Source: an uncultured Candidatus Saccharibacteria bacterium (lineage in GTDB: Bacteria > Patescibacteriota > Saccharimonadia > CAILAD01 > JADZBC01). Taken from it: a stretch of 64,000 nt of DNA. Below are positions 2,218 to 61,743 of this stretch, one piece after another. Below the pieces are notes generated by a model, which worked only from the letters and a program-made list of their open reading frames with translations, was not told the origin of the DNA and did not search any database. How positions within the stretch are numbered: position 1 is the stretch's first letter; every line of letters starts with the position of its first letter. Location: assembly GCA_964600985.1 (NCBI GenBank), contig CAZRJR010000001.1:45319-109318 (forward strand). Reading direction: 5' to 3'. The position numbers were made by a program, and so were the translations under genes.

Positions 2218-4128
2218 GTGTCGGGAAATATGGCCAGACTACCTGTTCCTGGTAGCGATAAGGGTACCTGGGGTGAAGTACTTAATGAATTCTTATCCGT
2301 AGAACACAATGCCGACGGTACGCTGAAGCCGGGCGGTACGCTTGGTGCGTATGCTCCTAAAGCGAACCCTACTTTTACAGGTGTAGTAACGGTCCCCACT
2401 CCCACGAATGCCACTGATGCAGTTACTAAGGCGTATGCCGATAATCTGGTAGTAGGTGGCGCACCTGATGCTACAAGTAGTGCAAAAGGTCTCATTCAGC
2501 TTACTGGCGATCTCGGTGGTAGCGCGGCTAACCCTAGCGTGCCTGGCTTGGCGAGTAAAGTGCCTACCTCGCGCACAGTTAATGGCCACGCTCTCTCGGC
2601 AGACATTACGCTTAGTAAAGCAGATCTTGGCCTTGGTAGTGTAGACAACACGTCCGATGCCGGCAAGCCGGTCTCAGCCGCCACTGCCGCGGCATTGGAA
2701 GGCAAAGCAGACAAAAGTGCAGTGCCGGTAAACGTTAAGGATTATGGTGCTGTTGGGGATGGAGCTTCGAATGACACAAGTGCTTTTACAGCAGCTATAA
2801 CAGCGGCTGGCTCGACTCGTTCGATATTTGTCCCAGCCGGTACCTACAAGGTTGATCCAGACTCCATTGCTCTTAGTACGAATGCTGTGATTAAAGGTGA
2901 ATACTATGCTCGCACAATTATTATTTCATCTTCGGGTACCAAGGTGGGATCTGGTATTTCTATTCAAGGCCAAGGCGTCGAAGTGTCCAACCTTTATATT
3001 CGGGGCTACTATTCAGGCATTGAGAATTCTTACTCAAACACAAAGATCTATGACAATAAGTTGTCGTACAACGTCATAGGTATTGATTATGCCGCTAACT
3101 CTTACATAACTAAAGCTCGCGGAAACGAAATTACCTTTAATGATTTAGGCATCATAATCCGTACAAACGCACAGCCTTACCAGCTGCTTGTGACTGAGAA
3201 CACCATAGATAATAATAATGGCGTTGGGATTGCCGTATATGCGACTTCGGGTGGGTTAGTGATCGAGAATAACACCATAGAAGGAAACAGGAACTACTCG
3301 ACTAATGTAGGCTGCGGCATACTGATTAAAAGCTCTAATCTTTCGCGAATAAAGATTGATGGTAATTGGTTTGAGACCAATGGCAATCACGCCACTACTG
3401 CGGTAGATATTCTTATGCTAGCGCCCAACACCGAGCCTAGTACAGGAGCTGCATTACGCTCGGCCATTGTAGGTGTTTTACCTACAGGAGAGCAAGCAAA
3501 TTTTACAAGCGGCGGGTGTGCGTATGGTGCCGTGTCGATTACCAATAATGCCTTCATATTTACCAAGTACAATGTGGTGGTGGCTGGATATAAAACTTTG
3601 GTAGGTATTGCAGACAATAGCTTTAAGGGTGTACTAAATCTAAACAATAAGCATATTTTCCTGAATGTTCCCTCGGGCACTACCGGTATGGGTGGCGGCC
3701 GTGTTGTGATCAATGGCAATGGATACAAGAATTCTGACAATGCTGCGATTGACGCTCAGGTGTCCACTGGGATTGGCGACTCTATTGTATATGCCGACAG
3801 CGTGCTCAGCGGAGCAGGGGACATCTACATATATAACGACAACCCTGTAAATCAGATTATCCAAAAGTCCTCCACGTATACCATTACAGCTACAGACTCT
3901 ATCATTAGTGCTGACGCTACAAGTTCGCCATTTACCATTACACTCCCTAGTGCAGTTAATAATACTGGCAGGACCTATGTAGTGAAGCGTGTAAATGCTG
4001 GCGGGAATGATGTCACTCTCAGTGCTGCAGCCGCAGAGACGATAGACGGTGCTGCATCGGCAATGCTAACTGCTCAGTGGCAAACGGTAAAAGTTATATC
4101 AGATGGATCGAACTGGCTTACCGTGTAG
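2218..4128 (+). CDS. phage-tail-fibre-like surface protein with pectin-lyase-type right-handed beta-helix (paralog 1)
   Basis: 636 aa. The N-terminal ~100 aa is nearly identical in pattern to ORF 23695..25086 (LPxPGxDKGTWGEVLNExL...). It carries the phage tail-fibre repeat ANPTFTGVVTVPTPTNATDAVTKAYAD. The central region has the VKDYGAVGDGASNDTSAF motif typical of the pectate-lyase-3/tailspike beta-helix, followed by repetitive N/G-rich beta-helix coils (NNNGVGIAVYATSGGLVIENNTIEGN). Confidence 0.8.
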   Translation: MSGNMARLPVPGSDKGTWGEVLNEFLSVEHNADGTLKPGGTLGAYAPKANPTFTGVVTVPTPTNATDAVTKAYADNLVVGGAPDATSSAKGLIQLTGDLGGSAANPSVPGLASKVPTSRTVNGHALSADITLSKADLGLGSVDNTSDAGKPVSAATAAALEGKADKSAVPVNVKDYGAVGDGASNDTSAFTAAITAAGSTRSIFVPAGTYKVDPDSIALSTNAVIKGEYYARTIIISSSGTKVGSGISIQGQGVEVSNLYIRGYYSGIENSYSNTKIYDNKLSYNVIGIDYAANSYITKARGNEITFNDLGIIIRTNAQPYQLLVTENTIDNNNGVGIAVYATSGGLVIENNTIEGNRNYSTNVGCGILIKSSNLSRIKIDGNWFETNGNHATTAVDILMLAPNTEPSTGAALRSAIVGVLPTGEQANFTSGGCAYGAVSITNNAFIFTKYNVVVAGYKTLVGIADNSFKGVLNLNNKHIFLNVPSGTTGMGGGRVVINGNGYKNSDNAAIDAQVSTGIGDSIVYADSVLSGAGDIYIYNDNPVNQIIQKSSTYTITATDSIISADATSSPFTITLPSAVNNTGRTYVVKRVNAGGNDVTLSAAAAETIDGAASAMLTAQWQTVKVISDGSNWLTV

Positions 4129-4191
4129 CGGCATGCAGATTAGTTATGTGTGCAGCCGGAGAATATGGAGATCACTCCCTTGTCCACGTAT

Positions 4192-4602
4192 CTATAGCTC
4201 GGGAAGCAGTGCATACATTGCGCTTCCCGGGAGCCGCTTTCTGAAGCCAGACTTGGCCCGAGATATGTCATTACTCTGTGGCAGGTTGATCCATGGATCC
4301 ATCCAGTGGTTGCCGTGCCTTACAAGGTAGTGCCCTGCAGGATACTTTTTTGACCTGCGAATTAATACTATCGTTCCTTCTTTATAAATATGCCCCCGTA
4401 GCTTTTTGTTTATGTATCTTGATTGGTAGCGCAGCCCATTGTTGTTTAGTGCTCTGGCAAGGTCTTTCACCCAAAACCTGTTACTCTTGGCTTGCTTTGG
4501 GCCGAGTAAATCTTCGGCTCGCTTGTAGCTAGTGTTAAGAAGGAAGGCAAAACAGGCTATTCCGCAGCCGTATTCAAACTCTTGAGTTATGCTTTTTCTC
4601 AT
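4192..4602 (-). CDS. papain-like cysteine peptidase, C39-like (BtrH-like) domain protein
   Basis: 136 aa. EYGCGIACFAFLL is a candidate Cys-containing motif and GHYLVRHGNHW a downstream His, as in the standalone Peptidase_C39_2 family. Assigned from memory. Confidence 0.4.
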   Translation of the reverse strand: MRKSITQEFEYGCGIACFAFLLNTSYKRAEDLLGPKQAKSNRFWVKDLARALNNNGLRYQSRYINKKLRGHIYKEGTIVLIRRSKKYPAGHYLVRHGNHWMDPWINLPQSNDISRAKSGFRKRLPGSAMYALLPEL

Positions 4603-4794
4603 ACCAAGAGTGTAGATTTTCTAATTATATATGCAATCTAATAAATACGTTAGTTGATTTTAGAAGGCTTTCACCGAAAGAACTTTTGTGTGCAGTGTTG
4701 GGTGCAGTGGCGTCCGCCTAAAACTTTAAAAGACACTGAGCTTTACAAGCCCAAATGCTTATGTTACCGTTAAGAAATAAGCTGGGATATCAAG

Positions 4795-5301
4795 ATGGCT
4801 CAAGTCAAACCAAGACAACTCTCCGGAAAAAAATCCACGAAAAATAGCAAATTAATCAAACCAAATAAAATGAGCAAGAAGGGCTTAGTGCCTGTCATCG
4901 CGGTTGTTGTGCTTGTTGGTGGATTTGTGGTGTTAAAAACTTTTGCTTCAGGAACACCGAATCGAACATCCAGGTCAGTTAAGTTCAGTAAATCTTACAC
5001 AAGTGGAAAGTTCAAAAGTACTGACGGCAAAGTATGCGTCACAGCTCGCTTTAATAGCAAGTTCTTTCCAGGTATAAAGGATAAGTATTACTGGGCGGTT
5101 CAAGTTTGGGATAGGCAGGGGTTCTATGCTACCGTAGCAACTTCGAAAAAGTATCAGGCTAACGGTAATCGCGATCATGAATGTTATGATGGGCGTATCT
5201 ACAAGGGGAATACGTACCGAGTACAATTCTTAGACGGTGATCCAACATACAACTATACTATAAAGGGGAGTTACTACGCGTCTGGCTTCTATCGTAAGTA
5301 G
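4795..5301 (+). CDS. membrane-anchored hypothetical protein (Lys-rich N-terminus, one TM, Tyr/Cys-rich ectodomain)
   Basis: 168 aa with a KK-rich cytoplasmic head, the TM segment VPVIAVVVLVGGFVVL and a C-terminal Y/K-rich domain. Confidence 0.5.
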   Translation: MAQVKPRQLSGKKSTKNSKLIKPNKMSKKGLVPVIAVVVLVGGFVVLKTFASGTPNRTSRSVKFSKSYTSGKFKSTDGKVCVTARFNSKFFPGIKDKYYWAVQVWDRQGFYATVATSKKYQANGNRDHECYDGRIYKGNTYRVQFLDGDPTYNYTIKGSYYASGFYRK

Positions 5302-6535: not shown

Positions 6536-7048
6536 CTACCAGACGAGGTAAGCGTCCCCATGAGGATCGAACGCGAGCCCTGACCCATCGATGGGCCGGA
6601 CTTCCACCTCGTAGCTGGGACGAGTCTCCTGGCTGACGAAGGGCTGCCTGAGCCACTTCTCGATACGGAGGCCGAGGTCGTTCGAGATGGCCTGCCTGCG
6701 CATCTCGTAGCCGTCTTCGCAGTCCGGGTCATCTTTGCGGACCAGCTCTGTCGCATCTCGATCGCCTGGCTGGACGTCGATCGCCCAGTCGTCGTGGTTG
6801 AAGTCCCACGGGTGCTGCCGGTGAACGCGGATCTTGACCTCGCCAGGGGTGATCTTGGTCTTGTCGACCTGACTCACGGCACGAGCAACCATCTTGGGCA
6901 GATCCAGAAGGAACCGCCGCGTGAGCTCGAAGCTGTAGGGGAAGCCCGACGTAGTGCATCCAGGGACTTGGCTGCGCCACTTCGCCTCATGGATCTGGTC
7001 TTCATCGGGCAGCCAGCTGGCTGCACAGAAAACATCAACTACGGGCAT
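6536..7048 (-). CDS. hypothetical protein on GC-rich insert
   Basis: 170-aa ORF in a visibly GC-rich block (~6400..7060) that lies between att-like repeat copies A and B. No motif recognised. Confidence 0.5.
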   Translation of the reverse strand: MPVVDVFCAASWLPDEDQIHEAKWRSQVPGCTTSGFPYSFELTRRFLLDLPKMVARAVSQVDKTKITPGEVKIRVHRQHPWDFNHDDWAIDVQPGDRDATELVRKDDPDCEDGYEMRRQAISNDLGLRIEKWLRQPFVSQETRPSYEVEVRPIDGSGLAFDPHGDAYLVW

Positions 7049-7997: not shown

Positions 7998-8043
7998 AGA
8001 CTCCCGCAAAGGGGTCTTCAATCATAAGGTCTATGGAGGGCCA
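7998..8043. repeat. att-like repeat copy C: tRNA-Lys 3' end plus downstream terminator hairpin (46 bp)
   Basis: agactcccgcaaaggggtcttcaatcataaggtctatggagggcca overlaps the last ~10 nt of tRNA-Lys. On the minus-strand transcript the hairpin is followed by a T6 tract. Confidence 0.8.
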
Positions 8044-8110
8044 GGTGGGATTCGAACCCACGACATGCTGCTTAAGAGGCAGCCGCTCTAACCAACTGAG
8101 CTACTGGCCC
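8034..8110 (-). tRNA. tRNA-Lys (anticodon CTT), CCA encoded
   Basis: The reverse complement reads GGGCCAGTAGCTCAGTTGGTTAGAGCGGCTGCCTCTTAAGCAGCATGTCGTGGGTTCGAATCCCACCTGGCCCTCCA. It folds as a cloverleaf with anticodon loop CTCTTAA and T-loop GTTCGAATC. Confidence 0.85.
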
Positions 8111-8134
8111 GCAATTGTGCGGACATATTGTGCA

Positions 8135-8211
8135 TGGTGCGCCCTGAGGGATTCGAACCCCCGGCCTTCTGATCCGAAGTCAGACGCTCTATCCAGCTGA
8201 GCTAAGGGCGC
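8135..8211 (-). tRNA. tRNA-Arg (anticodon TCG), CCA encoded
   Basis: The reverse complement reads GCGCCCTTAGCTCAGCTGGATAGAGCGTCTGACTTCGGATCAGAAGGCCGGGGGTTCGAATCCCTCAGGGCGCACCA. The anticodon loop is CTTCGGA and the D-loop has A20 (CTGGATAG), typical of Arg. Confidence 0.85.
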
Positions 8212-9693: not shown

Positions 9694-10077
9694 ATGGATC
9701 TAATTCAGCAAGGATATGAACAGAAGGGGGCGTGGGGTATCTCTACATCTATAGACTTGTACGGATGTGACGCTGAAAAAATCCGTAATGCCAAAGCTAT
9801 TGAAAATTTTGTGGTTGAGCTCTGTGATCTAATAAAAGTAACGCGGTTTGGTGAGTGTCAGGTTGTTCACTTCGGTGAAAAAGAAGAGATTGCTGGTTTC
9901 TCTATGACACAGCTTATTGAAACATCGCTTGTTTCTGCTCACTTTGCTAATCAAACAAATACAACTTACCTAGATGTTTTTTCTTGTAAATACTATAACC
10001 CGCAAATAGTTGCTGATTTCGCTAAAAAGTATTTTGAAGCCGAGAATTACGCCATGAATTATAATCTAAGAAAGTAG
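9694..10077 (+). CDS. S-adenosylmethionine-decarboxylase-fold (SpeH/SpeD class 1b-like) protein with substituted processing/catalytic residues
   Basis: 127 aa. It can be aligned by eye to B. subtilis SpeD (GCDxxKL near the N-terminus; IIETSLVSAHFANQ versus VIISESHLTIHSFPE). The Ser that becomes the pyruvoyl group (E-S-H) is Thr here, and the adjacent His and the FPE Glu are not conserved. Confidence 0.55.
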   Translation: MDLIQQGYEQKGAWGISTSIDLYGCDAEKIRNAKAIENFVVELCDLIKVTRFGECQVVHFGEKEEIAGFSMTQLIETSLVSAHFANQTNTTYLDVFSCKYYNPQIVADFAKKYFEAENYAMNYNLRK

Positions 10078-10083
10078 AATAGT

Positions 10084-11298
10084 ATGAATCCAGAAAGGCC
10101 ATCTTCCATTTCTAGCAAAGAAAAGGGCTCTACTGAGTCAGGGAGAGATATCCAGCCATCTGGGTTTGATTTTGAGGCATATCGGGTTTTGTTGGATCAA
10201 GGTGCCGTCGGTTCTCGTAAAATAGGCCTGATGGATCCAGATATGGCACAACAAGCTTTCCTAGACCAAAGGACTGTACTGGTTAACACTCAAGGAATGT
10301 CCGTACCGGCGATTGTGCCAATTGAATATGTGGAAGGGTGGGATCAGGAGCGAGCACGAAGGATTGCGCAGGAAAACGATAGCGAGGGCCAGGAAGTTTA
10401 CTACTTGGCGTTGTCGGGGGATATGATCGAACAATTTGTGCGGCAGCCCGAAGCACTCGCCGATCTGGCTTCGAAGGCGCGAGAAGGATTGAAGTTGTAC
10501 TTTGAGCATACATTGGCTCAAGACGATAAAGTGGTAGAAAACTTAGGAAGATTATTATCTGCAGCTGGTTTAAGCTGGCACGAATTACCGCTCATGGACT
10601 CCCAGGCACAGGAAGGGAGGGAGCAGGCCTCAATGTCCTTTTACGCTGCCCTAACTCATCACACTAGTGTCGAAACGACACCTCTGGAGCCAATTAGTAT
10701 TTACGAAAGATTTGAACAACTTGTTGCAGAAGGAAAATATGAAAAGTTTCCTGAGAACGGCCCAACTATTCTTGGCACACAAGACTTAGACCAACATCTT
10801 AGAGACCAGCTATGGGATTTATATGAACAAAGATTCCAAGATTTAGGAGAGAATCATCCTATTTCAATGGAGGATAATCGAGATTTCTTTGAACAACTCA
10901 TCGAAACACAAGGTACTACTTTGAGTGTGTACTTCAACGAAGGAAGGCCAGTTGCGTTTATGTTCTTTATGACTAGTCCGGAATCAATTTCTTGGATTAA
11001 TTCTGATTTTATAGAGGAGCATACAAGGGGTGAAGAGCGATTCTTGTTCTTTCCTGGTATCGTGGCACGAGCAGATGGCGTCGGGCATTATGCCGAGCCC
11101 GTTATACAGTTGCCGACTCACGTTATTTCTCAGACCAGCTTAGATTATAGAGTTTGTTTTGAGAGCACAAATCGATCAAGTGGCTATATTCCAAGACTTG
11201 TAGAGGATTATGTAAACGCAACAGCAGAGCTTAGTATCGACCCGCCTGCACCCATTGATACAACATATTATCGATGCTTAGAGGTGAAAGGGGCTTAA
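10084..11298 (+). CDS. hypothetical protein (possible acyltransferase-like C-terminal half)
   Basis: 404-aa ORF that starts 7 nt after the preceding gene. It is AT-rich like its neighbours. No confident motif. Confidence 0.5.
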   Translation: MNPERPSSISSKEKGSTESGRDIQPSGFDFEAYRVLLDQGAVGSRKIGLMDPDMAQQAFLDQRTVLVNTQGMSVPAIVPIEYVEGWDQERARRIAQENDSEGQEVYYLALSGDMIEQFVRQPEALADLASKAREGLKLYFEHTLAQDDKVVENLGRLLSAAGLSWHELPLMDSQAQEGREQASMSFYAALTHHTSVETTPLEPISIYERFEQLVAEGKYEKFPENGPTILGTQDLDQHLRDQLWDLYEQRFQDLGENHPISMEDNRDFFEQLIETQGTTLSVYFNEGRPVAFMFFMTSPESISWINSDFIEEHTRGEERFLFFPGIVARADGVGHYAEPVIQLPTHVISQTSLDYRVCFESTNRSSGYIPRLVEDYVNATAELSIDPPAPIDTTYYRCLEVKGA

Positions 11299-12242
11299 CG
11301 TACCCAGTTAACGGAGTATTTTTTCAGGAAAGCACTCGGTCTCAATAGTAACTTATGTTGCCTCAGGCCTTCTATACCCAGGTCTTGCTCGAGGTTAACA
11401 TGGGTTAGGCCGTGATCTGCCAGTAGTCCAAGTGCAGAGTAGAATAGATAATCAAATAGATAATTAAATTTATAACTGCACTTAATATGGTGAATTATCG
11501 CATAACCTTTATTCGGTAGTATAGTGGTAATTAAGAAGCCCTCTATTTTGTTGTTAATGTAGAGGCGTAAGACGTGGCAGCCTGCTCCATTCAGTGAAAT
11601 CAATCTTCGTTGCAATGCAATATTTTCAACCTCTTCAGGGTCGTTACCAAATTGATAGGCACTTTTCCAGTTTCTTAAGAGTGATATTAGCTCTTTGCCT
11701 TCTTGCCCGCCAGTCAGTTTAGTAAATGTTGTCTTGATGTTTTTTTCATAACTCTTTTTGAATGAGTTAATTTGATATCGAAGTCTTTTATATTCAGGAC
11801 CACCCAGGCTTAAAAAAGTTGGGATATGATATACGTAGTCCCAATTGTCCCTGTTTTCAGTAATAGATATAAAGTCCAAATCTATTTCGTGCATAAGACA
11901 TTCTGGCAGCATTGTTAGCATGTATGTAGATGGAGCGTTACCGATTAGCTTTTGTATGGTTTCGTTTGCTAAAGAACTTCCAAGTATACTGATGCTTGGC
12001 TCAAGCGGATTGTTGCTGAATATGTCCGTAAATTTAAAAATGACATTGTTGTTGAGCTGAGCAATCACTAAATCGTCATTTATGTTGAGCCACGTCATGA
12101 GATTTGCGAAACAGAAGTCTGCGTATGGATCAAATTTTTCGTAGAATTCTACATACCACTGACTGTCTGTGGTATCAATCGATCTGAAAGAAGGGAACAG
12201 AGGTAGGTTTCCGGGTAACATATATAGGCAAGCATAGCACAA
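11295..12242 (-). CDS. hypothetical protein, possibly tandem-GNAT aminoacyl-tRNA-dependent transferase-like (DUF2156/FemAB-like)
   Basis: 315-aa ORF convergent with, and overlapping by 4 nt, the preceding gene. The family assignment rests only on size and composition pattern and is held with low confidence. Confidence 0.4.
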   Translation of the reverse strand: MCYACLYMLPGNLPLFPSFRSIDTTDSQWYVEFYEKFDPYADFCFANLMTWLNINDDLVIAQLNNNVIFKFTDIFSNNPLEPSISILGSSLANETIQKLIGNAPSTYMLTMLPECLMHEIDLDFISITENRDNWDYVYHIPTFLSLGGPEYKRLRYQINSFKKSYEKNIKTTFTKLTGGQEGKELISLLRNWKSAYQFGNDPEEVENIALQRRLISLNGAGCHVLRLYINNKIEGFLITTILPNKGYAIIHHIKCSYKFNYLFDYLFYSALGLLADHGLTHVNLEQDLGIEGLRQHKLLLRPSAFLKKYSVNWVR

Positions 12243-12300
12243 CTCTACTCCTGTCGCTATTTAATAAGAAAAAGCTTAACTTCTTTGCTATACTTATGCT

Positions 12301-14580
12301 ATGTATATAGGCCAAGCACTCATATATGTGCCGATCGTCATCGGGGTATTTATTATTGCCTCTCTTACATATTTTCGTAGAGCAACGAACGGCCTTTTTA
12401 TGTTTTCAGTTTTTAGTCTTGTTATAGGCTGCTGGATTGGCGTACAGGGGTTAGCTCAACTCAATACATCGACAGCTAACAACTTAATGTTTATACGAGC
12501 TTCAAGCGCATTTTCTGTTTTGATTGGACTTACATTCTACTTATTTATCTTTTCTTATCTAAAGACTCCACGTAATAAAATACTAGATATTCTTATCTTC
12601 TCATCATCTTTAGTGTTTTTCGGACTAAATTGCACCGGTGTAATGATTCAAAAGGTCGAGGTTACTTCAGCAGGAATATCGGTAACAGAAGCCTCAAGCC
12701 TATACACCGCTCAGTTGATTTTTGTGGGCTTGTTGGTAATCGGGAGTCTTATAAAGCTCTTTCGCATGGCGCGCAAAGAAACTAAGGTAAATAGATTTAA
12801 GAATTACCTTATGATATTCGCTTTCGTTCAAGCGGTAGTTTTTTCTGTTGGGGCAACAATCTTTTTCCCTACTCTCGCTATCAGTCAATATGCAATCGTG
12901 GGGTCTATTTTCCTCATGGTCCTTATTATTGCGTATGCAATCATTAGACATAAGCTGTTTGATATTCGAGCTGTTGTTGCGAGAGCCCTCACTTATTTAC
13001 TTGTAATTGTCACAATATCCATTACCTATGGCTTACTGGCATTTGTACTTGTCGGTGGTTTAATCTTTAAAGACAGTCAGTTGAGCCTTGCACAGCAAGC
13101 CTTCTATGCCATTTTGGCCGTCATCTTGGCCTTTACCTTCCAGCCAATTCGCCGGTTCTTTGAGCGTGTGACCGACAAGATATTTTACCGTGACAAATAC
13201 GATCCGCAACAGCTTATAAATGCAGTGGGGCGTATACTCACAGCCGAGATTCGCCTAAATGTGCTAACAAAAGAAGTAACTAAGGTGATTGAGCAGCAAA
13301 TGCGCGTGGGTAAGGTGGACATCGTGGTGGTAAATGACAAGAATATATACTACCAAGCGCGGGTGTTGCGTGGCGATAGTAGCGAACTGGAGCTTAAGGA
13401 TCTGCAGGAGCTAGGCAAACCCATGCTGGTGGCAGACGATATGAGCACGGGCGATCGCAAAGATATTATGGACAAGTATGGCTTGCGGGTAAGTATAACC
13501 TTGCGTACCTCAGAGGAGTTCGTGGGCTACTTACTCCTGGGGGAAAAGCTCAGTGGCGATATATACAATGAGCAAGATCTAGCAGTGCTGCGAATTATTG
13601 CCAACGAGCTCGCAGTGGCGGTGCAAAACGCCAAGGCCTATACCGAAATTCAACAGTTCAACAAAACCCTGCAAGCCAAAGTGGTCTCAGCCACACGTAA
13701 GTTACGACGGGCTAATGAAGACCTCAAGGAGCTCGACCAGGCTAAGGATGAGTTTATATCGATGGCGTCGCACCAGCTGCGTACGCCGCTCACTACCGCT
13801 AAAGGCTACGTAAGCATGGTGCTCGAGGGTGACTTTGGTAAAATTGCCCCGGCTATGAAGGAGCCACTCACGCAGGCGCTCGACAGCGCGAACCGTATGG
13901 CTGGGTTGGTAAGTGATTTGCTCAACGTCAGTCGTATGGAGGCCGGCCGATTCTTTATAGATCCAACGGACGTGGATCTAAATACCGAAGTGCCAGCGGA
14001 GCTTAACCAGCTGCAGACCATGGCTGATTCTAAGAGTGTAAAGCTTATTTATCATAAGCCAGCTAAACCAGTACCAATGATGAAGCTGGATTTAGATAAA
14101 ACACGCCAGGTGATTATGAACCTAGCCGACAATGCTATTCACTACAGTGCACCACCAAACGGTGGCGGCAAGGTAGAGGTAAGCTTGGAGCTCGATGGCA
14201 AAGACATTGTGTTTAAGGTAGTGGATAATGGTATTGGTGTGCCAGAAGCTCAGCAGAAGAAATTGTTTAAAAAGTTCTTCCGGGCGGCGAATGCGCAAAA
14301 CACCCGCCCGGACGGAACCGGGCTAGGACTTTACTTAGTGAAGCGAGTGGTAGAGGATCAGGGTGGCGAATTAGTGTTTGAAAGTACTGAGGGTAAGGGC
14401 TCAACCTTCGGCTTTAGGATGCCCGTGCATAATAAAATTCACCCTAACTCTAAGGCAGCTCAAAAATTAGCTGGGAACGAGACGCAGCTGAGCCCAAGTA
14501 GTAAGGCTGAGCTACAGCCAGAACCAATGGAGGCTAAGTCGGCCAAAGTGTCGATTGCCACTAAGTCCAAGACTAAATAA
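12301..14580 (+). CDS. sensor histidine kinase with large N-terminal multi-TM sensor domain
   Basis: 759 aa with about 8 predicted TM helices at the N-terminus. It has a HisKA H-box (SHQLRTPLTTAKGY), an N-box (NLADNAIHYS) and a G-box (GTGLGLYLVKRVVEDQGGEL). No response regulator is adjacent. Confidence 0.85.
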   Translation: MYIGQALIYVPIVIGVFIIASLTYFRRATNGLFMFSVFSLVIGCWIGVQGLAQLNTSTANNLMFIRASSAFSVLIGLTFYLFIFSYLKTPRNKILDILIFSSSLVFFGLNCTGVMIQKVEVTSAGISVTEASSLYTAQLIFVGLLVIGSLIKLFRMARKETKVNRFKNYLMIFAFVQAVVFSVGATIFFPTLAISQYAIVGSIFLMVLIIAYAIIRHKLFDIRAVVARALTYLLVIVTISITYGLLAFVLVGGLIFKDSQLSLAQQAFYAILAVILAFTFQPIRRFFERVTDKIFYRDKYDPQQLINAVGRILTAEIRLNVLTKEVTKVIEQQMRVGKVDIVVVNDKNIYYQARVLRGDSSELELKDLQELGKPMLVADDMSTGDRKDIMDKYGLRVSITLRTSEEFVGYLLLGEKLSGDIYNEQDLAVLRIIANELAVAVQNAKAYTEIQQFNKTLQAKVVSATRKLRRANEDLKELDQAKDEFISMASHQLRTPLTTAKGYVSMVLEGDFGKIAPAMKEPLTQALDSANRMAGLVSDLLNVSRMEAGRFFIDPTDVDLNTEVPAELNQLQTMADSKSVKLIYHKPAKPVPMMKLDLDKTRQVIMNLADNAIHYSAPPNGGGKVEVSLELDGKDIVFKVVDNGIGVPEAQQKKLFKKFFRAANAQNTRPDGTGLGLYLVKRVVEDQGGELVFESTEGKGSTFGFRMPVHNKIHPNSKAAQKLAGNETQLSPSSKAELQPEPMEAKSAKVSIATKSKTK

Positions 14581-26333: not shown

Positions 26334-26825
26334 TCAGTACGACCAGTAGTCGCCGTAGTCGGAGAACGGGTCGTCGTAGTCGTAGCGACGGTGGCCGACG
26401 TCGACGAGGCTGAAGGCGAAGTCGCCTTCGTCATCAGACTCCATCTCGCGAGCGGAGGCCTCATCGTCTCGACACCACCAGCAGAGCTTCTCGCCACCAC
26501 AGGTGATGTACCAGGTCTCGGCGTCCTCATCGAACACCAGGTGATGCAGGCGCTCGTCCTCGAGGACCTGCATCCGGAAGAGGCGCCGACCGAGCTCGTC
26601 GTGGGTGCGGTAGTCGTCGACGTGGATGCCGAGATCGAAACGCACGGTGACCAGGGCCTTCTTGCCGGGGGTGAACGAGACACCGGGGCCGTTGAACGGG
26701 CCGTAGGGTCCTGGGATCGGCAGCACATCGACGAGTGTGCGGTCGAGGATCTGGAGGGTGACGTTGACCTGGCGCTCAGCGGCGAGCAGCAGGTCTTTCG
26801 AGGTGCCCTCGTACTCGATGGACAT
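26334..26825 (-). CDS. hypothetical acidic protein on high-GC insert
   Basis: It starts at the internal Met (MSIEYEG...) of ORF 26334..26915. Over a sampled 60 nt the minus frame shows the canonical high-GC codon pattern (GC3 ~85% > GC1 > GC2 ~40%), whereas the antisense ORF 26391..26894 does not. Two Cys pairs are present (CGG...CWWC). Confidence 0.45.
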   Translation of the reverse strand: MSIEYEGTSKDLLLAAERQVNVTLQILDRTLVDVLPIPGPYGPFNGPGVSFTPGKKALVTVRFDLGIHVDDYRTHDELGRRLFRMQVLEDERLHHLVFDEDAETWYITCGGEKLCWWCRDDEASAREMESDDEGDFAFSLVDVGHRRYDYDDPFSDYGDYWSY

Positions 26826-26946
26826 GTTTTCCAGGAGGCACATGGCCGTCCCTTTCATGATCGTCTTGGATGGGTGCGAACTGACAGAACTTAACGTTCG
26901 TCGTAATAATAGCATAAAAATAATAAATTGTCAAGACTGGTGATCC

Positions 26947-27102: not shown

Positions 27103-27177
27103 TGGTGATCCCGCGGGGAATCGAACCCCGATTGCCAGGATGAAAACCTGGTGTCCTAACCGTTAGACGACGGGACC
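27103..27177 (-). tRNA. tRNA-Glu (anticodon TTC), CCA encoded
   Basis: The reverse complement reads GGTCCCGTCGTCTAACGGTTAGGACACCAGGTTTTCATCCTGGCAATCGGGGTTCGATTCCCCGCGGGATCACCA. It is closely similar in architecture to E. coli tRNA-Glu, and the anticodon loop is TTTTCAT. Confidence 0.85.
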
Positions 27178-27624
27178 TCGTCCAAGCATGAACTTTAGCT
27201 TCTCGTCTCGCAGTATGCAAGCCTGTCAGCTGCCGTCATGCTTCTCCACTCGATTTTGTAAACAGCTTCTAGCGTCGCTTCGGTTCACAAAATCGGTTAA
27301 GGTCTAAAACAGACAAATTAACCATGTAATAGTAGCATTTTAGTACCTAAGTTTCAAGGTGGCAGGCGCCCATAAAACGAAAGAACCCCACGGATTCTAT
27401 CCGTAGGGTATGTATGGTGTCCGCCTGGGGCGAGACCCGGGTGTGAACGATGTGTTCTGCCCGGGTCTCGCCCGACCCGCTCTCCGTGGTGTGGAGAACG
27501 TGGGGCTCCCCCTGTCCGGTGGAGGGAGGACCGCTTGGCGTGCGCCAAGCCGGGGGAGCCCCGAAGGTGGCCGGTCGCAACTGGGGCGGGCAGCCAGCGC
27601 GACCGGCCGATCTTGGCGGCTTGT

Positions 27625-28107
27625 TCAGCCGCCGTCGACCGGTTGGCCGACGCTCACCTCATTGGTCGAGGTGTCCACCACCTTGCACTTCACACCCTTG
27701 GTGTACGGGGTGGCGTGCTTGGCGTCCGGCGGCAGGATCTGGGCCTGTCGGCACGTTGTGACGACCGTGTGGCCATCCGTGGTCTTCACCACCTTCCCGT
27801 GGGTAACCATCACGTGGTCGCATCTGTTGCCATCCGCGAAGGTCGCGTCGAGGTTCAGGCTGTGCGCCTTCATGTAGGCGCGGTAGCCAGCCTTGATGGC
27901 ATCCTGCTGCCCCTGGCACTTGCCGGCGTTGTAGCCGTGGTTGAAGCCATCCTCGTAGCGGTGGGTGTGATACTGGGAGGCCCAGTAACACATTCCGGCG
28001 ATGATCGCCAAGCTGATCACAAGGATCGGCACGGCGGGGATGTAGGGGCGACTGCCAGTCACCCCATCGGTGCCCTTGCGGGCGGTGTCTGGTGTGGGGG
28101 AGGCCAT
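27625..28107 (-). CDS. hypothetical membrane-anchored/secreted protein on high-GC insert
   Basis: 160 aa with an N-terminal TM/signal segment (IPAVPILVISLAIIAGMCYWA) and an extracytoplasmic domain with 4 Cys. Its composition is more protein-like than the low-complexity Ala/Gly/Arg-rich antisense ORFs. Confidence 0.4.
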   Translation of the reverse strand: MASPTPDTARKGTDGVTGSRPYIPAVPILVISLAIIAGMCYWASQYHTHRYEDGFNHGYNAGKCQGQQDAIKAGYRAYMKAHSLNLDATFADGNRCDHVMVTHGKVVKTTDGHTVVTTCRQAQILPPDAKHATPYTKGVKCKVVDTSTNEVSVGQPVDGG

Positions 28108-29101
28108 GCCGCCCCTCCTTTCTGAGGTGCGTTCGTGATCCGGTTGATCACGAAAAGTGAAGCTATAATATCAGAAAGATAGCATTAAGTCAATACTCTT
28201 ATGGGGCTTAGAACAGAGAAACCCGCTTGAGTCTCTCGGATGTCCTTTGTGGGACGGTAGAGAAACCCAGGCGGGTGGTTGGGTGTGGTGCGTCGACTAG
28301 CTCTGGATCACCTGCCAGCCCTGCAGATGGCGGTAGAACATCACTGCGATCATGAAGAGCACAACCACAATGACGACACACAGGAGTTTGCACAGGAGCT
28401 CCCGATCTCCCGCCTTGACTGCCGTGTCCTGACGATCGTGCAGGTATGGCTGGGTGTAGGGCGCGTAGGGCCAGTATTTACGCATATCACCTTCTTTCAG
28501 AGGGTTGGCGCTGCCATCATGGCGATAACAGCGATGATGAACAGGATGGCGCAAGCACGCAACAGCGGTAGTAGAAGACATCGCCGACGTGGCCAGGTAA
28601 CGCTGGGTTGAACGGCTTGGCCAGGCCCTACGTAATGCACCCGCGGATGATCCGTGGTGTAGTGGCGCTGCATCACAGGGTCACGCTTCGTGCGCAAACT
28701 GCTAGCAAGAACCCCACCAGGATCACCAGGACCAGAAGGCCCCGACTGCCGATCGTCATCGCGCCGTCGCCATGACGATGATCAATCCCGCGATGATGAG
28801 TAGCAGCAAGACCCGACGAAGTGACCTTGAAGTGTTAGACGAACTCGTCTGACACTCGTTCTGCCACCATGGCTTCGGAATGCCGTACCTCGGTTCGCCA
28901 AGGCGACCGTCTTCACCATCACTTCCTTCCACTACATTACCTCCTGATTGTCGGTATGTTTTTTGGTTATTTCCAGGTGCTAAACAGCGTGGCTCAACTA
29001 TATTCTTGCAAAAAGGAAAAATCAATATATTTTCTCGATTGGTGTTTGTGCCGGATTAGCCTATAATAAAGCGTAAGAACTAAGATTAACCTGGGCGGCG
29101 G

Positions 29102-58344: not shown

Positions 58345-61300
58345 ATGAGTAATCAATCCCCCAAATACAATCCGCAAGACATCGAACCCAAATGGCAAAA
58401 GATTTGGGATGAAACTGGTGTGTACACCGCTAACTTAGAGAGTGATAAGCCCAAGTACATTGCCATGAGTATGTTTAACTACCCTAGTGGTGCCGGCATT
58501 CACATTGGCCACGCTATGAACTACACCATAAGTGATGTAAAGGCGCGCTTTAAGCGCCAACAGGGATTCGAAAGCTATCATCCGGTTGGCTGGGATGCCT
58601 TTGGTTTACCGGCCGAAAACTATGCCATTAAGGCAGGTGTGAGTCCACAAGAGAGCATGGCTACCATCATCCCGAGCTATCATAAACAATACAAGGCCAT
58701 GGGTTGGAGCAATGACTGGGAGAAGGAAATATCTACCCACTTACCCGAATACTACAAGTGGACTCAATGGATATTTAGCCAAATGTACAAGCACGGCTTG
58801 GCGTACCAAGACAAGCGGATGCAGTGGTGGTGCAACAAGTGTCAGACTGTGCTTGCCAACGAGCAAGTGATAGACGGCAAATGCTGGCGGCACGACGGCG
58901 CAGATGATCCTATGGTAGAAAAAAAGGAAGTAAAGCAGTGGTTCTTTAAGATTACCGAGTATGCCGATGAGCTCTTAGAAGCAACTGATGATCTTGATTG
59001 GACTGAGAGTGTGAAGACAGCACAAAAGAATTGGATCGGCCGGAGCGTGGGAGCAGAAGTTAAGTTTGCAGTGGAAGGCAGCGAAAAATCTATTACAGTC
59101 TTTACTACCCGAGCCGATACACTCTTTGGTGCTACATTCCTAGTACTTGCTCCTGAGCATGAGTTGGTAAATAAACTTACCACTCCAGAGCAAAAGGAGG
59201 AAGTTGAGGCGTATATTGCGGCTGCCGCTCTTAAGACCGAGGTTGATCGCCAAGCAGCCAAGCAAAAAACGGGTGTATTCACTGGGGCGTACGCAATTAA
59301 TCCAGTAAATGGTGAGAAGGTGCCAATCTGGATAGCGGACTACGTGCTAACTGGTTACGGTACAGGTGCAATTATGGCGGTGCCAGCGCATGACGAACGA
59401 GACAATGAATTTGCAAAGAGGTTCAATCTGCCAATAGCTCCAGTTATTAAGCCGGTGACCGGCGTTCCTCAGGAGAACCCCGAGTACCGGAAGAGTATTG
59501 TTGCAATCGTATACAATCCGCGAACAGAAAAGTACCTTTCGATTAATTGGGGCAAAGATGGTGGCAATATATTCATCGGTGGCGGTCAAGAAGAGGGTGA
59601 AGATATTGTGACAACTGCCTTGCGCGAGATTCGTGAAGAAACAGGTTATCAGAATGTCAAACATACTGCTACTACGCCAACAGACATTGAGCACCACTAC
59701 TTTGCACATAGTAAGAGGGTAGCTAGAAGGATTGATTGTTCTGGATTACTATTTGAGCTAGAAGATGATCAACAATTTCAACAATCACTTGAGGCTGATG
59801 AACAGGGTAAATTTACAATTGATTGGCTAACAAAAGACGAAGTACTAAAGAGTGTTAAAGATGAACTACATAGAACATGCTTTGAACAGCTTGTATTAGA
59901 ACAAGTTTTTACAGCAGAAGGCCTGCTTATTAACTCAGGGGCATATAACGGCATGACTACGAGTGAAGCGCGTGATAGGATAATTACCGATTTGGCAGGC
60001 AAGATTGGTGATGAGGCTGTTGACGTTGAGTACACTACTAATAGCGAGCCGGTCTTTATACAGAAAGTTTCAGGAAGTGCCGTAAAGAAAGATCAGCCCT
60101 TTGTAGAACGTGAAGCTATTACGGCAATCGTAAAGCATTGGAAAGAAGATAAATATATTGGCCTAAAGTGGAAGCAAGTTGATTGGGAGACGTTGATTAC
60201 AGGTGGAGTTGAGGATGGCCAAACTCCAGAGGAAGCTGCTATCGCTGAGATTCGTGAAGAAACAGGTTACTTACACCCAGTTCTTAAGCAGGATTTCGGC
60301 ACAATGCATGCTAAGTTCTTCCATGTTCCAAAGAACGAGAACAGACACGCACACTTCTCTTGCTTGTACTTTGAATTGGCCGATGGGGTGAGAGAGGAGA
60401 TTGCTGAAGAAGAACAGCAGAATCATGAAGTTGTATGGTTGAGTGCTGAAGAAATGACAAGTTTTAAGCTACCAGCTTCGCACCGGTATATGTGGGATCA
60501 ACTTAGAGGGAATTCTTCTGGCTTAGCTGCGGAAAAAGTTAATTACAAAATGCGTGATTGGTCAGTATCACGTCAGCGCTACTGGGGTGCGCCGATACCG
60601 ATTGTGAATTGTGAAAAGTGCGGAACAGTATTGGTCCCAGAGGACGAGTTACCAGTAGAGTTGCCAGAGCTTACCGACTTCGTGCCAAGTGGTGATGGCC
60701 GCAGTGCCTTGGCCCGTGCTACTGATTGGCTCAACACTACCTGCCCTGATTGTGGTGGGCCGGCTGAGCGAGAGACGGATACCTTAGACACGTACATTTG
60801 TTCTAGTTGGTATATGTTCCGCTACTTTGATCCGCGCAATCAGCAAGAGATCTTTGAATCCAACGTAGTTAACAAGTGGATGCCGATCGATTTTTATAAT
60901 GGTGGCGATCATGCTACTGCCCATATGCTTTATGCACGGTTTGTAACCCGATTCTTTAGCAAGATTGGTTTGGTGAACAGCCCGGAGCCCTTTAAGCAGT
61001 TCCTATTTAACGGGAAGGTGCGGGCCAGTGATGGTAGCGCGTTTTCGAAGTCTAAGGGCAACGGCATAGATCCACTCGATGTAATTAATAATGGCTATGG
61101 CGCTGACGCTTTGCGCATGTACTTGATGTTCGCGGCTCCATTAGAGATTGACGCTCGTTGGGATCCGCAAGGGGTGCCGGGTACATTCCGGTTCCTCTCG
61201 CGGTTGTGGAACTTGGTTAGTGAATACCAAGCTGCGCCACAGAGTGAGTTGAGCGAAGCAGCGGGCCGGACAGTACTTAGTCCCATGCATGCTATGGTCA

Positions 61301-61743
61301 AAAAAGCTTCGCAAGATATCGAAGAAAACCACTATAATACTGCCATTGCGGCGATTATGGCTGGGCTCAATGACTTGTATAAGCAAAGGAGCACGCTAGT
61401 GCGAGGCAAGGTGTGGCAGCAAGCGCTCGAGATGATCGTGGCTACTGTAGCGCCATTTGCGCCACACATTGCGGATGAGTTGTGGCAGCAGCTCGGTCAC
61501 AGCAGCAGCGTGCACAAGGACACTTGGCCGAAGTGGGATGAGGCATACCTTGTGAGTGACGTTATCACGATCGTGGTGCAAGTAAATGGTAAGCTACGTG
61601 GTGAGTTCAGTGTATCTACCGATAGTACAAAGGAGGACTTGGAAGTAGAAGCGCGCCGCTTGGCCGAAGAAAAGGGGTGGATAAAAGATGAGGTTAAACG
61701 AGTCGTGGTCGTGCCGGGGAGGCTGGTTAACATAGTAGTTTAG
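58345..61743 (+). CDS. leuS: leucyl-tRNA synthetase carrying two in-frame Nudix-box-containing insertions
   Basis: 1132 aa. The HIGH region is YPSGAGIHIGHAMNY, the CP1 editing region has TTRADTLFGAT and VPAHDERDNEFAKRF, and NSGAYNG, MRDWSVSRQRYWGAPIP and the KMSKS-like FSKSKGNG are present, with the C-terminal domain. Two extra segments carry Nudix boxes (see findings). Confidence 0.9.
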   Translation: MSNQSPKYNPQDIEPKWQKIWDETGVYTANLESDKPKYIAMSMFNYPSGAGIHIGHAMNYTISDVKARFKRQQGFESYHPVGWDAFGLPAENYAIKAGVSPQESMATIIPSYHKQYKAMGWSNDWEKEISTHLPEYYKWTQWIFSQMYKHGLAYQDKRMQWWCNKCQTVLANEQVIDGKCWRHDGADDPMVEKKEVKQWFFKITEYADELLEATDDLDWTESVKTAQKNWIGRSVGAEVKFAVEGSEKSITVFTTRADTLFGATFLVLAPEHELVNKLTTPEQKEEVEAYIAAAALKTEVDRQAAKQKTGVFTGAYAINPVNGEKVPIWIADYVLTGYGTGAIMAVPAHDERDNEFAKRFNLPIAPVIKPVTGVPQENPEYRKSIVAIVYNPRTEKYLSINWGKDGGNIFIGGGQEEGEDIVTTALREIREETGYQNVKHTATTPTDIEHHYFAHSKRVARRIDCSGLLFELEDDQQFQQSLEADEQGKFTIDWLTKDEVLKSVKDELHRTCFEQLVLEQVFTAEGLLINSGAYNGMTTSEARDRIITDLAGKIGDEAVDVEYTTNSEPVFIQKVSGSAVKKDQPFVEREAITAIVKHWKEDKYIGLKWKQVDWETLITGGVEDGQTPEEAAIAEIREETGYLHPVLKQDFGTMHAKFFHVPKNENRHAHFSCLYFELADGVREEIAEEEQQNHEVVWLSAEEMTSFKLPASHRYMWDQLRGNSSGLAAEKVNYKMRDWSVSRQRYWGAPIPIVNCEKCGTVLVPEDELPVELPELTDFVPSGDGRSALARATDWLNTTCPDCGGPAERETDTLDTYICSSWYMFRYFDPRNQQEIFESNVVNKWMPIDFYNGGDHATAHMLYARFVTRFFSKIGLVNSPEPFKQFLFNGKVRASDGSAFSKSKGNGIDPLDVINNGYGADALRMYLMFAAPLEIDARWDPQGVPGTFRFLSRLWNLVSEYQAAPQSELSEAAGRTVLSPMHAMVKKASQDIEENHYNTAIAAIMAGLNDLYKQRSTLVRGKVWQQALEMIVATVAPFAPHIADELWQQLGHSSSVHKDTWPKWDEAYLVSDVITIVVQVNGKLRGEFSVSTDSTKEDLEVEARRLAEEKGWIKDEVKRVVVVPGRLVNIVV

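Follow-up and report, generated by a model that had tools for sequence, protein, structure and literature searches.

Saccharibacteria, whose genomes are very small, live on host bacteria, and the locus described here raises the question of what such an organism does with three tightly packed genes, and whether these act together. The window, by which we mean the whole 64,000-nucleotide stretch of Saccharibacteria DNA that was analysed, carries gene 1 (9694-10077, plus strand, 127 aa) and gene 2 (10084-11298, plus strand, 404 aa), both confirmed as open reading frames and separated by a 6-nt spacer. Gene 3 (11295-12242, minus strand, 315 aa as an open reading frame) is convergent with gene 2, and the 3' ends of the two share 4 nt. 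The reading frames, tight spacing and convergent overlap described in an earlier sequence-only reading of this DNA are all real, with the refinement that the start of gene 3 is probably the ATG at 12221 (308 aa) and not the TTG at 12242, a choice backed by the consensus N-terminus of its relatives. An M16 peptidase gene lies on one side of the cassette, and on the other a 7TM-receptor histidine kinase gene (12301..14580, plus strand) with HisKA_7TM, HisKA and HATPase_c domains. A scan for promoters and terminators gave counts no higher than those in shuffled sequence.

The identity of gene 1

The AdoMetDC fold that the sequence-only reading recognised in gene 1 is borne out by the Pfam AdoMet_dc profile (PF02675), which matches residues 20-126 over profile positions 4-106 of 107 (E 4.8e-24). 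That reading went on to see a Thr in place of the pyruvoyl-forming Ser at E76-T77-S78, and this proves to be a one-residue register error. The predicted pyruvoyl-forming residue is S78, the S of 'ETS', whose TCG codon we read from the sequence at 9925..9927 on the plus strand, and S78, H83 (+5) and C98 (+20) have a spacing identical to that of S63/H68/C83 in the T. maritima AdoMetDC. These three residues are kept in 120, 118 and 118 of 120 relatives, respectively. The supposed replacement of the xHxFPE motif holds in part: the catalytic His is retained as H83, and only the 'PE' that follows differs. The Pro of the H-T-x-P-E motif is fully conserved in bona fide AdoMetDCs (PMC10407285), and on the equivalog model for those enzymes (TIGR03330) gene 1 scores 36 bits, below the cut-off of 75.65.

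Gene 1 carries the motif QLIETSLVS.HFAN…Y of SpeDC, AdoMetDC-fold, pyruvoyl-dependent enzymes which decarboxylate L-ornithine and were characterised by Li, Liang, Phillips & Michael (J Biol Chem 2023; PMC10407285). The Gln, Thr, Phe and Tyr diagnostic of SpeDC correspond to Q73, T77, F84 and Y92, a mapping drawn from the ODC-active SpeD2 sequences in Fig. S5 of that paper, and are kept in 118, 120, 117 and 103 of the 120 relatives. With the ODC-active SpeD2 domain of Ca. Omnitrophica KXK35843, whose sequence was read from the OCR text of the supplement to PMC10407285, gene 1 shares 46% identity over 123 aa, ungapped (E 5e-43). SpeD2 domains that share this IETS site process themselves at its Ser, on which the 'Pyruvoyl' label sits in Fig. 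S5 and at which S229A is the processing-site mutant, and they decarboxylate L-ornithine (PMC10407285). Homologs with ETS at the cleavage site that both self-process and decarboxylate are thus already in the literature, and the earlier view of gene 1 as a degenerate, repurposed fold is refuted. The assayed SpeDC enzymes, one CPR member among them, act on ornithine only, and on neither arginine nor lysine (PMC10407285).

Our assignment was made through the Pfam profile and literature sequences; a single-sequence search of gene 1 against the PDB returned only spurious poxvirus primase matches (E about 0.1). More than 2,600 close relatives occur in CPR and DPANN with the site invariant, and the motif is invariant or nearly so across all 120 aligned relatives, which is the opposite of decay. 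That gene 1 encodes a normal SpeDC-family proenzyme, predicted to be an active ornithine decarboxylase, is well supported by these sequence comparisons. Taken alone, it is ordinary, another member of that family. An active pyruvoyl enzyme can be mistaken for a dead one when the register is off by a single residue near its autoprocessing site.

Two double-GNAT neighbours

The protein encoded by gene 2 is soluble and highly acidic (404 aa, pI 4.53, net charge -34), and its fold is that of two GNAT domains in tandem. Its family has a median pI of 4.6 and a median net charge of -29, and is without a basic inter-domain helix. The earlier statement that gene 2 has no recognisable family stands for curated sequence models, with no Pfam match above threshold (the best, Acetyltransf_6, reaches 16.8 bits against a cut-off of 22) and no NCBIfam or PDB sequence match, but falls for the fold, which is recognisably a tandem GNAT. 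Nor is gene 2 a 10-member orphan, an exhaustive profile search having recovered 449 representative clusters. We found no paper describing this acidic tandem-GNAT family.

Foldseek places gene 2 equally near tandem GNATs of the aminoacyl-tRNA and acyl-CoA types, at low TM-scores (0.25-0.37), so that an acyl-CoA and an aminoacyl-tRNA donor are not separable by this comparison. The window protein and its closest relatives carry R329-A-D-G332-V-G334 (R-x-x-G-x-G) in the beta4-alpha3 loop; across 62 members of the family the sequence of this R/Q-x-x-G-x-G/A loop, the pyrophosphate-binding loop of acyl-CoA GNATs, varies. Predicted strand 355-362 (beta5) carries E360, which is at least 90% conserved, and the invariant Y368 begins helix 368-379 (alpha4), positions that would fit a catalytic Glu on beta5 and/or a Tyr opening alpha4. 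Of the listed relatives, about a tenth (about a dozen) bear a hydrophobic N-terminal module; the N-terminal extensions of these long relatives are conserved, Ala/Gly-rich and hydrophobic, and no Pfam domain was found in them. Gene 2 likely encodes an N-acyltransferase for the amine that gene 1 would supply.

For gene 3, the likeness to DUF2156 that the sequence-only reading tentatively proposed was sound. The Pfam LPG_synthase_C/DUF2156 model matches at 62 bits (E 6e-17) against a gathering cut-off of 27.5, with relatives reaching 92 bits, and the double-GNAT fold resembles the catalytic domains of L-PGS and MprF. Its best functionally characterised structural neighbours are all aminoacyl-tRNA transferases, L-PGS and MprF being the nearest. 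Between the GNAT lobes runs helix 149-168 (GPEYKRLRYQINSFKKSY), residues 146-170 having a net charge of +5; G148 is invariant and R155 at least 90% conserved. A positively charged inter-lobe helix is an aminoacyl-tRNA-binding feature of DUF2156 enzymes (PMC7334510). Gene 3 is a standalone protein of the aminoacyl-tRNA-transferase fold, with a predicted aminoacyl-tRNA donor. It is not an MprF, because the DUF2156 domain spans the entire protein (308-315 aa) with no fused N-terminal flippase domain, and there is no transmembrane domain. Searched against the PDB up to E 10, the gene 3 profile reached only 2hqy and gave no residue-level alignment to MprF. The structure of this standalone DUF2156 type dates from 2006, and our literature search found no function for 2hqy-type proteins.

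Conservation and composition of the locus

The proposal that the three genes form a functional module is upheld by their co-occurrence across 25 distinct gene 2 loci, of which all named ones are from Saccharibacteria and so are not phylogenetically independent. (The scan used a 25-sequence gene 2 alignment, a 62-sequence alignment being too diverse.) In 19 of the 25, gene 2 is immediately preceded by a decarboxylase gene on the same strand, at gaps of -8 to +17 nt in most loci; six have no decarboxylase on the contig. The upstream enzymes have unrelated folds: SpeDC in 6 loci, PLP-dependent ornithine/lysine decarboxylase (ODC/LDC) in 12 and PvlArgDC in 1. Because the SpeDC-linked members fall into two separate clades of the gene 2 tree, there have been at least three decarboxylase replacements, and the filling of one slot by three unrelated folds suggests that the amine product is what matters. 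Against the PDB, the PLP enzymes match lysine/ornithine and ornithine decarboxylases at about 1e-57 and DAP decarboxylases at 1e-33 or worse. Their identification as LysA was rejected, since they score 174-196 bits on the lysA model, below its cut-off of 297.9, and the PDB favours lysine/ornithine and ornithine decarboxylases by more than 20 orders of magnitude.

Gene 3 adjoins gene 2 in 21 of 23 loci, and the 7TM histidine kinase follows the module in at least 16. These include one (L019) in which the kinase and genes 2 and 3 all point the same way, with 1 nt between genes 2 and 3, so that the adjacency survives a flip of gene 3. Elsewhere (L005/6) the decarboxylase-gene 2 pair sits in another neighbourhood, without gene 3 or the kinase. 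SpeDC genes far outnumber gene 2 genes, and in another Saccharibacterium (L017/18) SpeDC lies beside the same kinase type with unrelated genes between; SpeDC therefore also works without the gene 2 module, and lineage synteny could account for some of the linkage. Four ORFs considered as diverged gene 2 or gene 3 homologs proved unrelated (316 and 245 aa in L018, 192 aa in L015, 266 aa in L014); a 401-aa ORF in L016 is homologous to gene 2. In L001, L015 and L014 small multi-pass membrane ORFs lie interspersed, an EamA-type exporter gene lies near the DUF2156 gene in L014, and cell-wall enzymes, a polysaccharide deacetylase and a CHAP-domain protein, are encoded nearby.

The tandem-GNAT family, of about 450 representative clusters, is linked with a standalone DUF2156 protein and with a basic-amino-acid decarboxylase, of whatever kind the genome encodes. 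Short of experiments, genomes can hardly give a stronger sign of metabolic coupling than a swap among three unrelated decarboxylase folds in a single slot. We found no description of the decarboxylase-gene 2-gene 3 module in the literature.

The cassette is indeed more AT-rich than its surroundings, as the sequence-only reading had noted: genes 1, 2 and 3 have a GC of 0.375, 0.449 and 0.383 and a GC3 of 0.328, 0.400 and 0.399, against means of 0.508 (sd 0.047) and 0.528 (sd 0.081) for 46 window genes. The edges of the low-GC region are not exactly those of the cassette, because it reaches into the kinase gene by about 700 nt (12001-13000, GC 0.384). The horizontal acquisition that was drawn from this contrast is not demonstrated. 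The offset recurs in two diverged loci (L001 and L011, gene 2 identity 66% and 50%), which speaks against a recent insertion, and in almost all loci it is gene 3 that has the lowest GC; reading the low GC as recent transfer is thus unproven. In most PLP-type loci the offset was not found. The syntenic slot M16 - decarboxylase - gene 2 - gene 3 - kinase - PGK is kept in relatives down to 34% gene 2 identity.

What the module may make

We consider it reasonably likely that this conserved Saccharibacteria module makes and then conjugates a polyamine, by a SpeDC step, N-acylation by gene 2 and aminoacyl transfer by gene 3, the polyamine being most likely conjugated by gene 2 and probably by gene 3 also. 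The earlier guess of small-molecule or aminoacyl modification is plausible. The gene 1 proenzyme would self-cleave between T77 and S78, turning S78 into the pyruvoyl cofactor, and would decarboxylate L-ornithine to putrescine. Gene 2, 6 nt downstream and presumably co-transcribed with gene 1, would bind the cationic diamine and N-acylate it, the donor most likely being an acyl-CoA used by the C-terminal GNAT domain (E360, Y368). Gene 3 might, more tentatively, move an amino acid from aminoacyl-tRNA onto the same molecule or a related envelope acceptor. The end product would be an acyl/aminoacyl-putrescine conjugate, and the module may be under the control of the neighbouring 7TM histidine kinase. 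Since relatives use PLP ornithine/lysine or PvlArgDC-type decarboxylases, the module may be supplied with putrescine, cadaverine or agmatine. Double-GNAT aminoacyl-tRNA enzymes are known to aminoacylate small amines (PMC12945691). That a minimal genome should spend three or four genes on a polyamine derivative suggests that such a compound matters for the envelope or lifestyle, and 2hqy-type standalone DUF2156 proteins gain a testable function.

It is possible, if rather unlikely, that the module remodels envelope lipids. Gene 3 would aminoacylate a membrane lipid from aminoacyl-tRNA, like the MprF synthase domain or fungal ErdS, gene 2 would either couple a fatty acyl chain with the diamine or place the diamine on a lipid or cell-wall acceptor, giving a cationic envelope component, and the kinase would sense envelope or cationic stress. 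Two-component systems respond to such stress for mprF in Firmicutes. All characterised DUF2156 enzymes in the fungal and bacterial literature that we read act on lipids, namely PG, cardiolipin, DAG or ergosterol (PMC7334510), which together with the hydrophobic module fused to about a dozen listed gene 2 relatives hints at a membrane rather than a soluble acceptor. The likeness of gene 3 to L-PGS and MprF, the membrane ORFs within L001, L015 and L014, the adjoining kinase, and the nearby deacetylase and CHAP-domain protein are consistent with such a role. However, gene 3 lacks both a flippase and a transmembrane domain, the window's gene 2 protein is soluble and acidic, and nothing points to a lipid acceptor; the account also overlaps polyamine conjugation, differing from it only in the acceptor.

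We regard as unlikely a tRNA-dependent route to an aminoacyl-polyamine, in which the decarboxylase gives the scaffold, the DUF2156 protein ligates an amino acid and an MshD-like GNAT acylates the new alpha-amino group, an order of DUF2156 ligation and then tandem-GNAT acylation that the last two steps of mycothiol synthesis formally parallel. If true, this route would give 2hqy-type standalone DUF2156 proteins their first function and would be the first case of a simple polyamine being modified in a tRNA-dependent way; with cysteine as the amino acid, it would yield a polyamine-based low-molecular-weight thiol in CPR bacteria.

Polyamine homeostasis alone is a doubtful explanation. Gene 2 would then be a SpeG/SSAT-like acetyltransferase neutralising excess putrescine for export, for example in ornithine-consuming acid relief, and gene 3 and the kinase would be syntenic neighbours with a separate function, as the loci with a decarboxylase-gene 2 pair and no gene 3 (L005/6) and the exporter close to the DUF2156 gene in L014 might suggest. 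Against this, gene 3 stays beside gene 2 in 21 of 23 loci, an adjacency that outlasts its flip to co-directional order with a 1-nt gap, and a 400-aa tandem GNAT is much bigger than known polyamine acetyltransferases. That there is no functional coupling at all, SpeDC making putrescine for general needs in a position inherited with the gene order of a small, compact genome, seems very improbable. SpeDC is very widespread without gene 2, unrelated genes separate it from the same kinase type in L017/18, and a single phylum supplies all named loci, but an inherited gene order fits poorly with three unrelated folds in the same slot after at least three replacements, with reading frames that overlap or nearly abut, and with a decarboxylase-gene 2 pair kept in a different neighbourhood. 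That gene 1 is a dead AdoMetDC fold which has taken on a new role, non-enzymatic or at least not that of a decarboxylase, within an island recently acquired by horizontal transfer, a view for which the low GC of all three genes and the sub-threshold AdoMetDC score of gene 1 speak, is scarcely credible against an intact and exactly spaced Ser/His/Cys triad, an IETS site known to process and support ODC activity (PMC10407285), the invariance of that site in 120 relatives, and a syntenic position and low-GC offset common to diverged relatives.

Polyamine conjugation, the reading we prefer, has partial parallels in known systems. Gene 1 has the fold, size, processing Ser, His(+5), Cys(+20), Gln/Thr/Phe/Tyr and identical QLIETSLVS.HFAN core of SpeDC, for which many homologs in CPR and DPANN have already been noted (PMC10407285). 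There, speDC clusters with speD/speE, casdh/casdc or hss, whereas here its neighbours are a tandem GNAT with no curated model and a DUF2156 gene, a context absent from that paper. With class 1b AdoMetDCs (SpeD/SpeH, for example that of T. maritima) gene 1 has the fold, autoprocessing chemistry and triad spacing in common; bona fide AdoMetDCs have an E-S-H cleavage site and HT.PE, whereas gene 1 has T-S at the cleavage site (E-T-S-L) and HFAN (H-F-A-N-Q), and lies under the TIGR03330 cut-off. Assayed SpeDC enzymes failed to restore spermidine synthesis in an E. coli speD mutant (PMC10407285).

Gene 3 differs from MprF, aminoacyl-PG synthases and fungal ErdS in standing alone, without a flippase domain or fused aaRS, in clustering by sequence only with 2hqy, and in having a decarboxylase and a GNAT, not a hydrolase, as its genomic partner. 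The double-GNAT aminoacyl-tRNA enzymes that act on small molecules (Orf11/Sbb17/Sba18, DhpH/DhpK, PacB and VlmA) belong to actinomycete antibiotic clusters, whereas this module is found in a minimal-genome epibiont and its putative acceptor is a simple polyamine. The acyl-CoA tandem GNATs MshD, MAB_4324, GlcN N-acetyltransferase, ORF14 and Eis are only 7-12% identical to gene 2, whose family varies in its CoA-binding loop, reaches threshold on no curated GNAT model, stands out by its acidity and in some members has a hydrophobic module fused to it. For the PLP decarboxylases that replace gene 1, the best solved match is the Selenomonas ruminantium lysine/ornithine decarboxylase (5gjm, 1.7e-57), whose fold is unrelated to that of gene 1, which has no known GNAT or DUF2156 partner, and whose diamine-carboxyl attachment would need other chemistry. 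In S. ruminantium this decarboxylase supplies the diamine for peptidoglycan, an instance of an enzyme dedicated to producing a diamine that becomes covalently linked to the envelope.

The predicted decarboxylase encoded by gene 1

Three open reading frames make up the cassette, lying where the sequence-only reading had placed them: gene 1 (9694-10077, +, 127 aa), gene 2 (10084-11298, +, 404 aa) after a 6-nt spacer, and gene 3 (11295-12242, -, 315 aa), which is convergent with gene 2, overlaps it by 4 nt, and most likely starts at an ATG at 12221 to give a protein of 308 aa. An M16 peptidase gene flanks the cassette on one side and a HisKA_7TM histidine kinase gene on the other. Immediately upstream of the peptidase gene, ~1.5 kb from the cassette, lies a tandem tRNA-Lys(ctt) and tRNA-Arg(tcg) pair (8034-8211, -).

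Gene 1 belongs to Pfam AdoMet_dc (4.8e-24) and scores under the equivalog cut-off for bona fide AdoMetDC (36 vs 75.65 bits). More than 2,600 close relatives, at 60-70% identity, are found in Patescibacteria and DPANN archaea, and the near-invariance of IETS[LCM][IV]S[AG]HFAN across the top 120 of them argues for selection and not decay. Processing and catalysis in the T. maritima AdoMetDC require S63, H68 and C83 (Li et al. 2023, PMC10407285); gene 1 has S78, H83 (+5) and C98 (+20) at identical spacing. It also carries, as Q73, T77, F84 and Y92, the Gln, Thr, Phe and Tyr that are diagnostic of the SpeDC clade of pyruvoyl L-ornithine decarboxylases (PMC10407285). Each residue of both sets is kept in 103-120 of the 120 relatives.

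The earlier description of gene 1 as a degenerate fold is wrong on these grounds, as is the alignment of its E-T-S with E-S-H on which it drew; the right register pairs T-S with E-S. Homologs with ETS at this site are known to be ODC-active: the core QLIETSL[IV]SGHFAN…YLD[IV]FS, common to gene 1, recurs in two characterised fusion proteins, in their ODC-active SpeD2 domains, where the 'Pyruvoyl' label stands on the Ser of IETS (PMC10407285 Supplementary Fig. S5), and S229A is a mutant of the predicted processing-site Ser in the second domain of a fusion protein (PMC10407285). Gene 1 aligns gap-free with one ODC-active SpeD2 domain at 46% identity. The assayed SpeDC enzymes, among them one of CPR origin, accept L-ornithine but neither arginine nor lysine (PMC10407285), and this substrate use, together with the shared core, runs directly against the claim of a fold without decarboxylase activity. 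Judged by its residues, gene 1 should be an ornithine decarboxylase of the active type.

Genes 2 and 3

Gene 2 falls below threshold for all curated models. A word-indexed search recovered only 10 related proteins, and an exhaustive profile search expanded the family to 449 representative clusters, of which 174 reach E ≤ 1e-30. The AF2 model (pLDDT 83, pTM 0.81) is a tandem GNAT, for which Foldseek returns aa-tRNA enzymes intermixed with acyl-CoA-type tandem GNATs at low TM-scores, so the donor is not fixed by the fold. Strong acidity is uniform across the family, with a median pI of 4.6 and a median net charge of -29 (-34 in the window protein), and no basic inter-domain helix is present; this would fit polycation binding better than tRNA binding. 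E360, conserved on beta5, and Y368, invariant at the start of alpha4, occupy the usual positions of GNAT catalytic residues and are putatively catalytic. About a dozen gene 2 relatives among those listed (L019 416-1050, P0241, P0263 and about ten other long proteins) carry a conserved N-terminal module of ~200 aa, hydrophobic and Ala/Gly-rich, with the motifs E-x-x-P-x-NE-x-x-R and K-x-x-QDP-x-RT…RYG. The module has no Pfam match and may be a membrane anchor or a transporter-like domain.

Gene 3 matches LPG_synthase_C/DUF2156 above threshold, and its AF2 model is confident (pLDDT 89). Against the PDB, a profile of its relatives matched the structural-genomics protein 2hqy (2.7e-52) and nothing else; the literature that we looked through records no function for 2hqy. 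Between its two GNAT lobes it retains the basic helix that binds aa-tRNA in DUF2156 enzymes (PMC7334510); in gene 3 this helix carries a net charge of +5, and G148 is invariant. Gene 3 has no membrane domain, which rules out MprF.

Conservation and composition of the module

We annotated 25 distinct gene 2 loci with custom HMMs and Pfam. A decarboxylase gene lies immediately 5' of gene 2 on the same strand in 19 of the 25 (SpeDC in 6, a PLP-dependent enzyme in 12, PvlArgDC in L019), mostly at gaps of -8 to +17 nt; in the other 6/25 none was found on the contig. The PLP enzymes group with ornithine/lysine decarboxylases, and an assignment to LysA was rejected. Gene 3 adjoins gene 2 at 21 of the 23 loci with downstream DNA, and a 7TM histidine kinase follows the module in at least 16. 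At the PvlArgDC locus, gene 2, gene 3 (1-nt gap) and the kinase are all co-directional. In a neighbor-joining tree of gene 2 (no bootstrap), the SpeDC-linked members form two separate clades among the PLP-linked ones, which implies at least three decarboxylase replacements.

The components also occur apart. SpeDC is much commoner than gene 2, and in L005/6 the decarboxylase-gene 2 pair has other neighbours and is accompanied by neither gene 3 nor the kinase. In this one lineage an APH-family kinase gene (aminoglycoside/macrolide phosphotransferase-like; L005 7193-8101, - / L006 4263-5171, -) is convergent to gene 2 in the DUF2156 position. Distant DUF2156 relatives without gene 2 are still near a canonical AdoMetDC/ADC-type gene (L015) or PvlArgDC (L014). 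Small multi-pass membrane ORFs of no family, without homology to gene 2, are interleaved with decarboxylase and DUF2156 genes (L001 7395-7889, L015 5421-5999, L014 5084-5884), and in one lineage (L023) an inserted ORF of 397 aa (3725-4918, +), which has no Pfam hit, separates the PLP decarboxylase from gene 2. In Saccharibacteria GCA_001790445.1 (L017/L018), SpeDC lies near the same kinase type, and the slot between them (3179-4859, -) holds two different unannotated genes, of 316 aa and 245 aa; these are related to neither gene 2 nor gene 3 and may form an alternative cassette for this slot.

All named gene 2 loci are from Saccharibacteria and so have ancestry in common. L032 and L037, at 66-67% GC, may come from outside the group. 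The gene 2 relative in L037 (4989-5977; contig 67% GC) is split, probably pseudogenised, and lies beside genes for a DDE transposase and a Fic-domain protein, a setting which suggests that the family is present, or has moved, beyond Saccharibacteria.

The low GC reported for the cassette holds up when set against the 46 genes in the window that encode 150 aa or more (mean GC 0.508, sd 0.047; mean GC3 0.528, sd 0.081): genes 1, 2 and 3 have GC of 0.375, 0.449 and 0.383 and GC3 of 0.328, 0.400 and 0.399, and the low-GC stretch extends into the 7TM-coding portion of the kinase gene. This could go back to an old replacement whose source was a low-GC relative; a composition specific to these genes is also possible. 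Most PLP-type loci show no offset, and their genomes are low-GC themselves. The horizontal acquisition proposed earlier is unlikely as a recent insertion, since the slot M16 - decarboxylase - gene 2 - gene 3 - kinase - PGK is conserved in relatives with gene 2 identity down to 34%, and the offset recurs in L001 and L011.

Elsewhere in the window, three ORFs (6536-7048, -; 26334-26915, -; 27535-28125, +) have high GC (0.61-0.66, GC3 up to 0.82; window average 0.50) and no Pfam hit, and may represent foreign DNA or non-coding sequence. The second and third of them flank tRNA-Glu (27103-27177). The leucyl-tRNA synthetase (58345-61743, +, 1132 aa) has an unusual architecture, with a NUDIX domain (PF00293, 2.4e-21, ~residues 613-716) inserted between the editing and anticodon-binding domains.

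A proposed pathway and its relation to known systems

The first step, in which gene 1 would convert ornithine to putrescine, is well supported. Repeated non-orthologous replacement of the decarboxylase and its tight coupling to gene 2 suggest that the amine is the gene 2 substrate. Fold, charge and the placement of its motifs suggest that gene 2 N-acylates this amine, the donor probably being acyl-CoA. Gene 3, by its fold and adjacency, may then place an amino acid from aa-tRNA onto the same product or onto an envelope acceptor. Small-molecule acceptors have precedents in Orf11, DhpH/K, PacB and VlmA (PMC12945691). The main rival to a soluble product is a lipid or envelope acceptor, to which two things point: known DUF2156 enzymes are lipid-specific, and some gene 2 relatives carry hydrophobic N-terminal fusions.

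We found no description of a module of decarboxylase, acidic tandem-GNAT, standalone DUF2156 protein and 7TM kinase in the literature searched. Gene 1 by itself adds one more member to the already known SpeDC family, and the module as a whole is a variation on chemistry of kinds already known.
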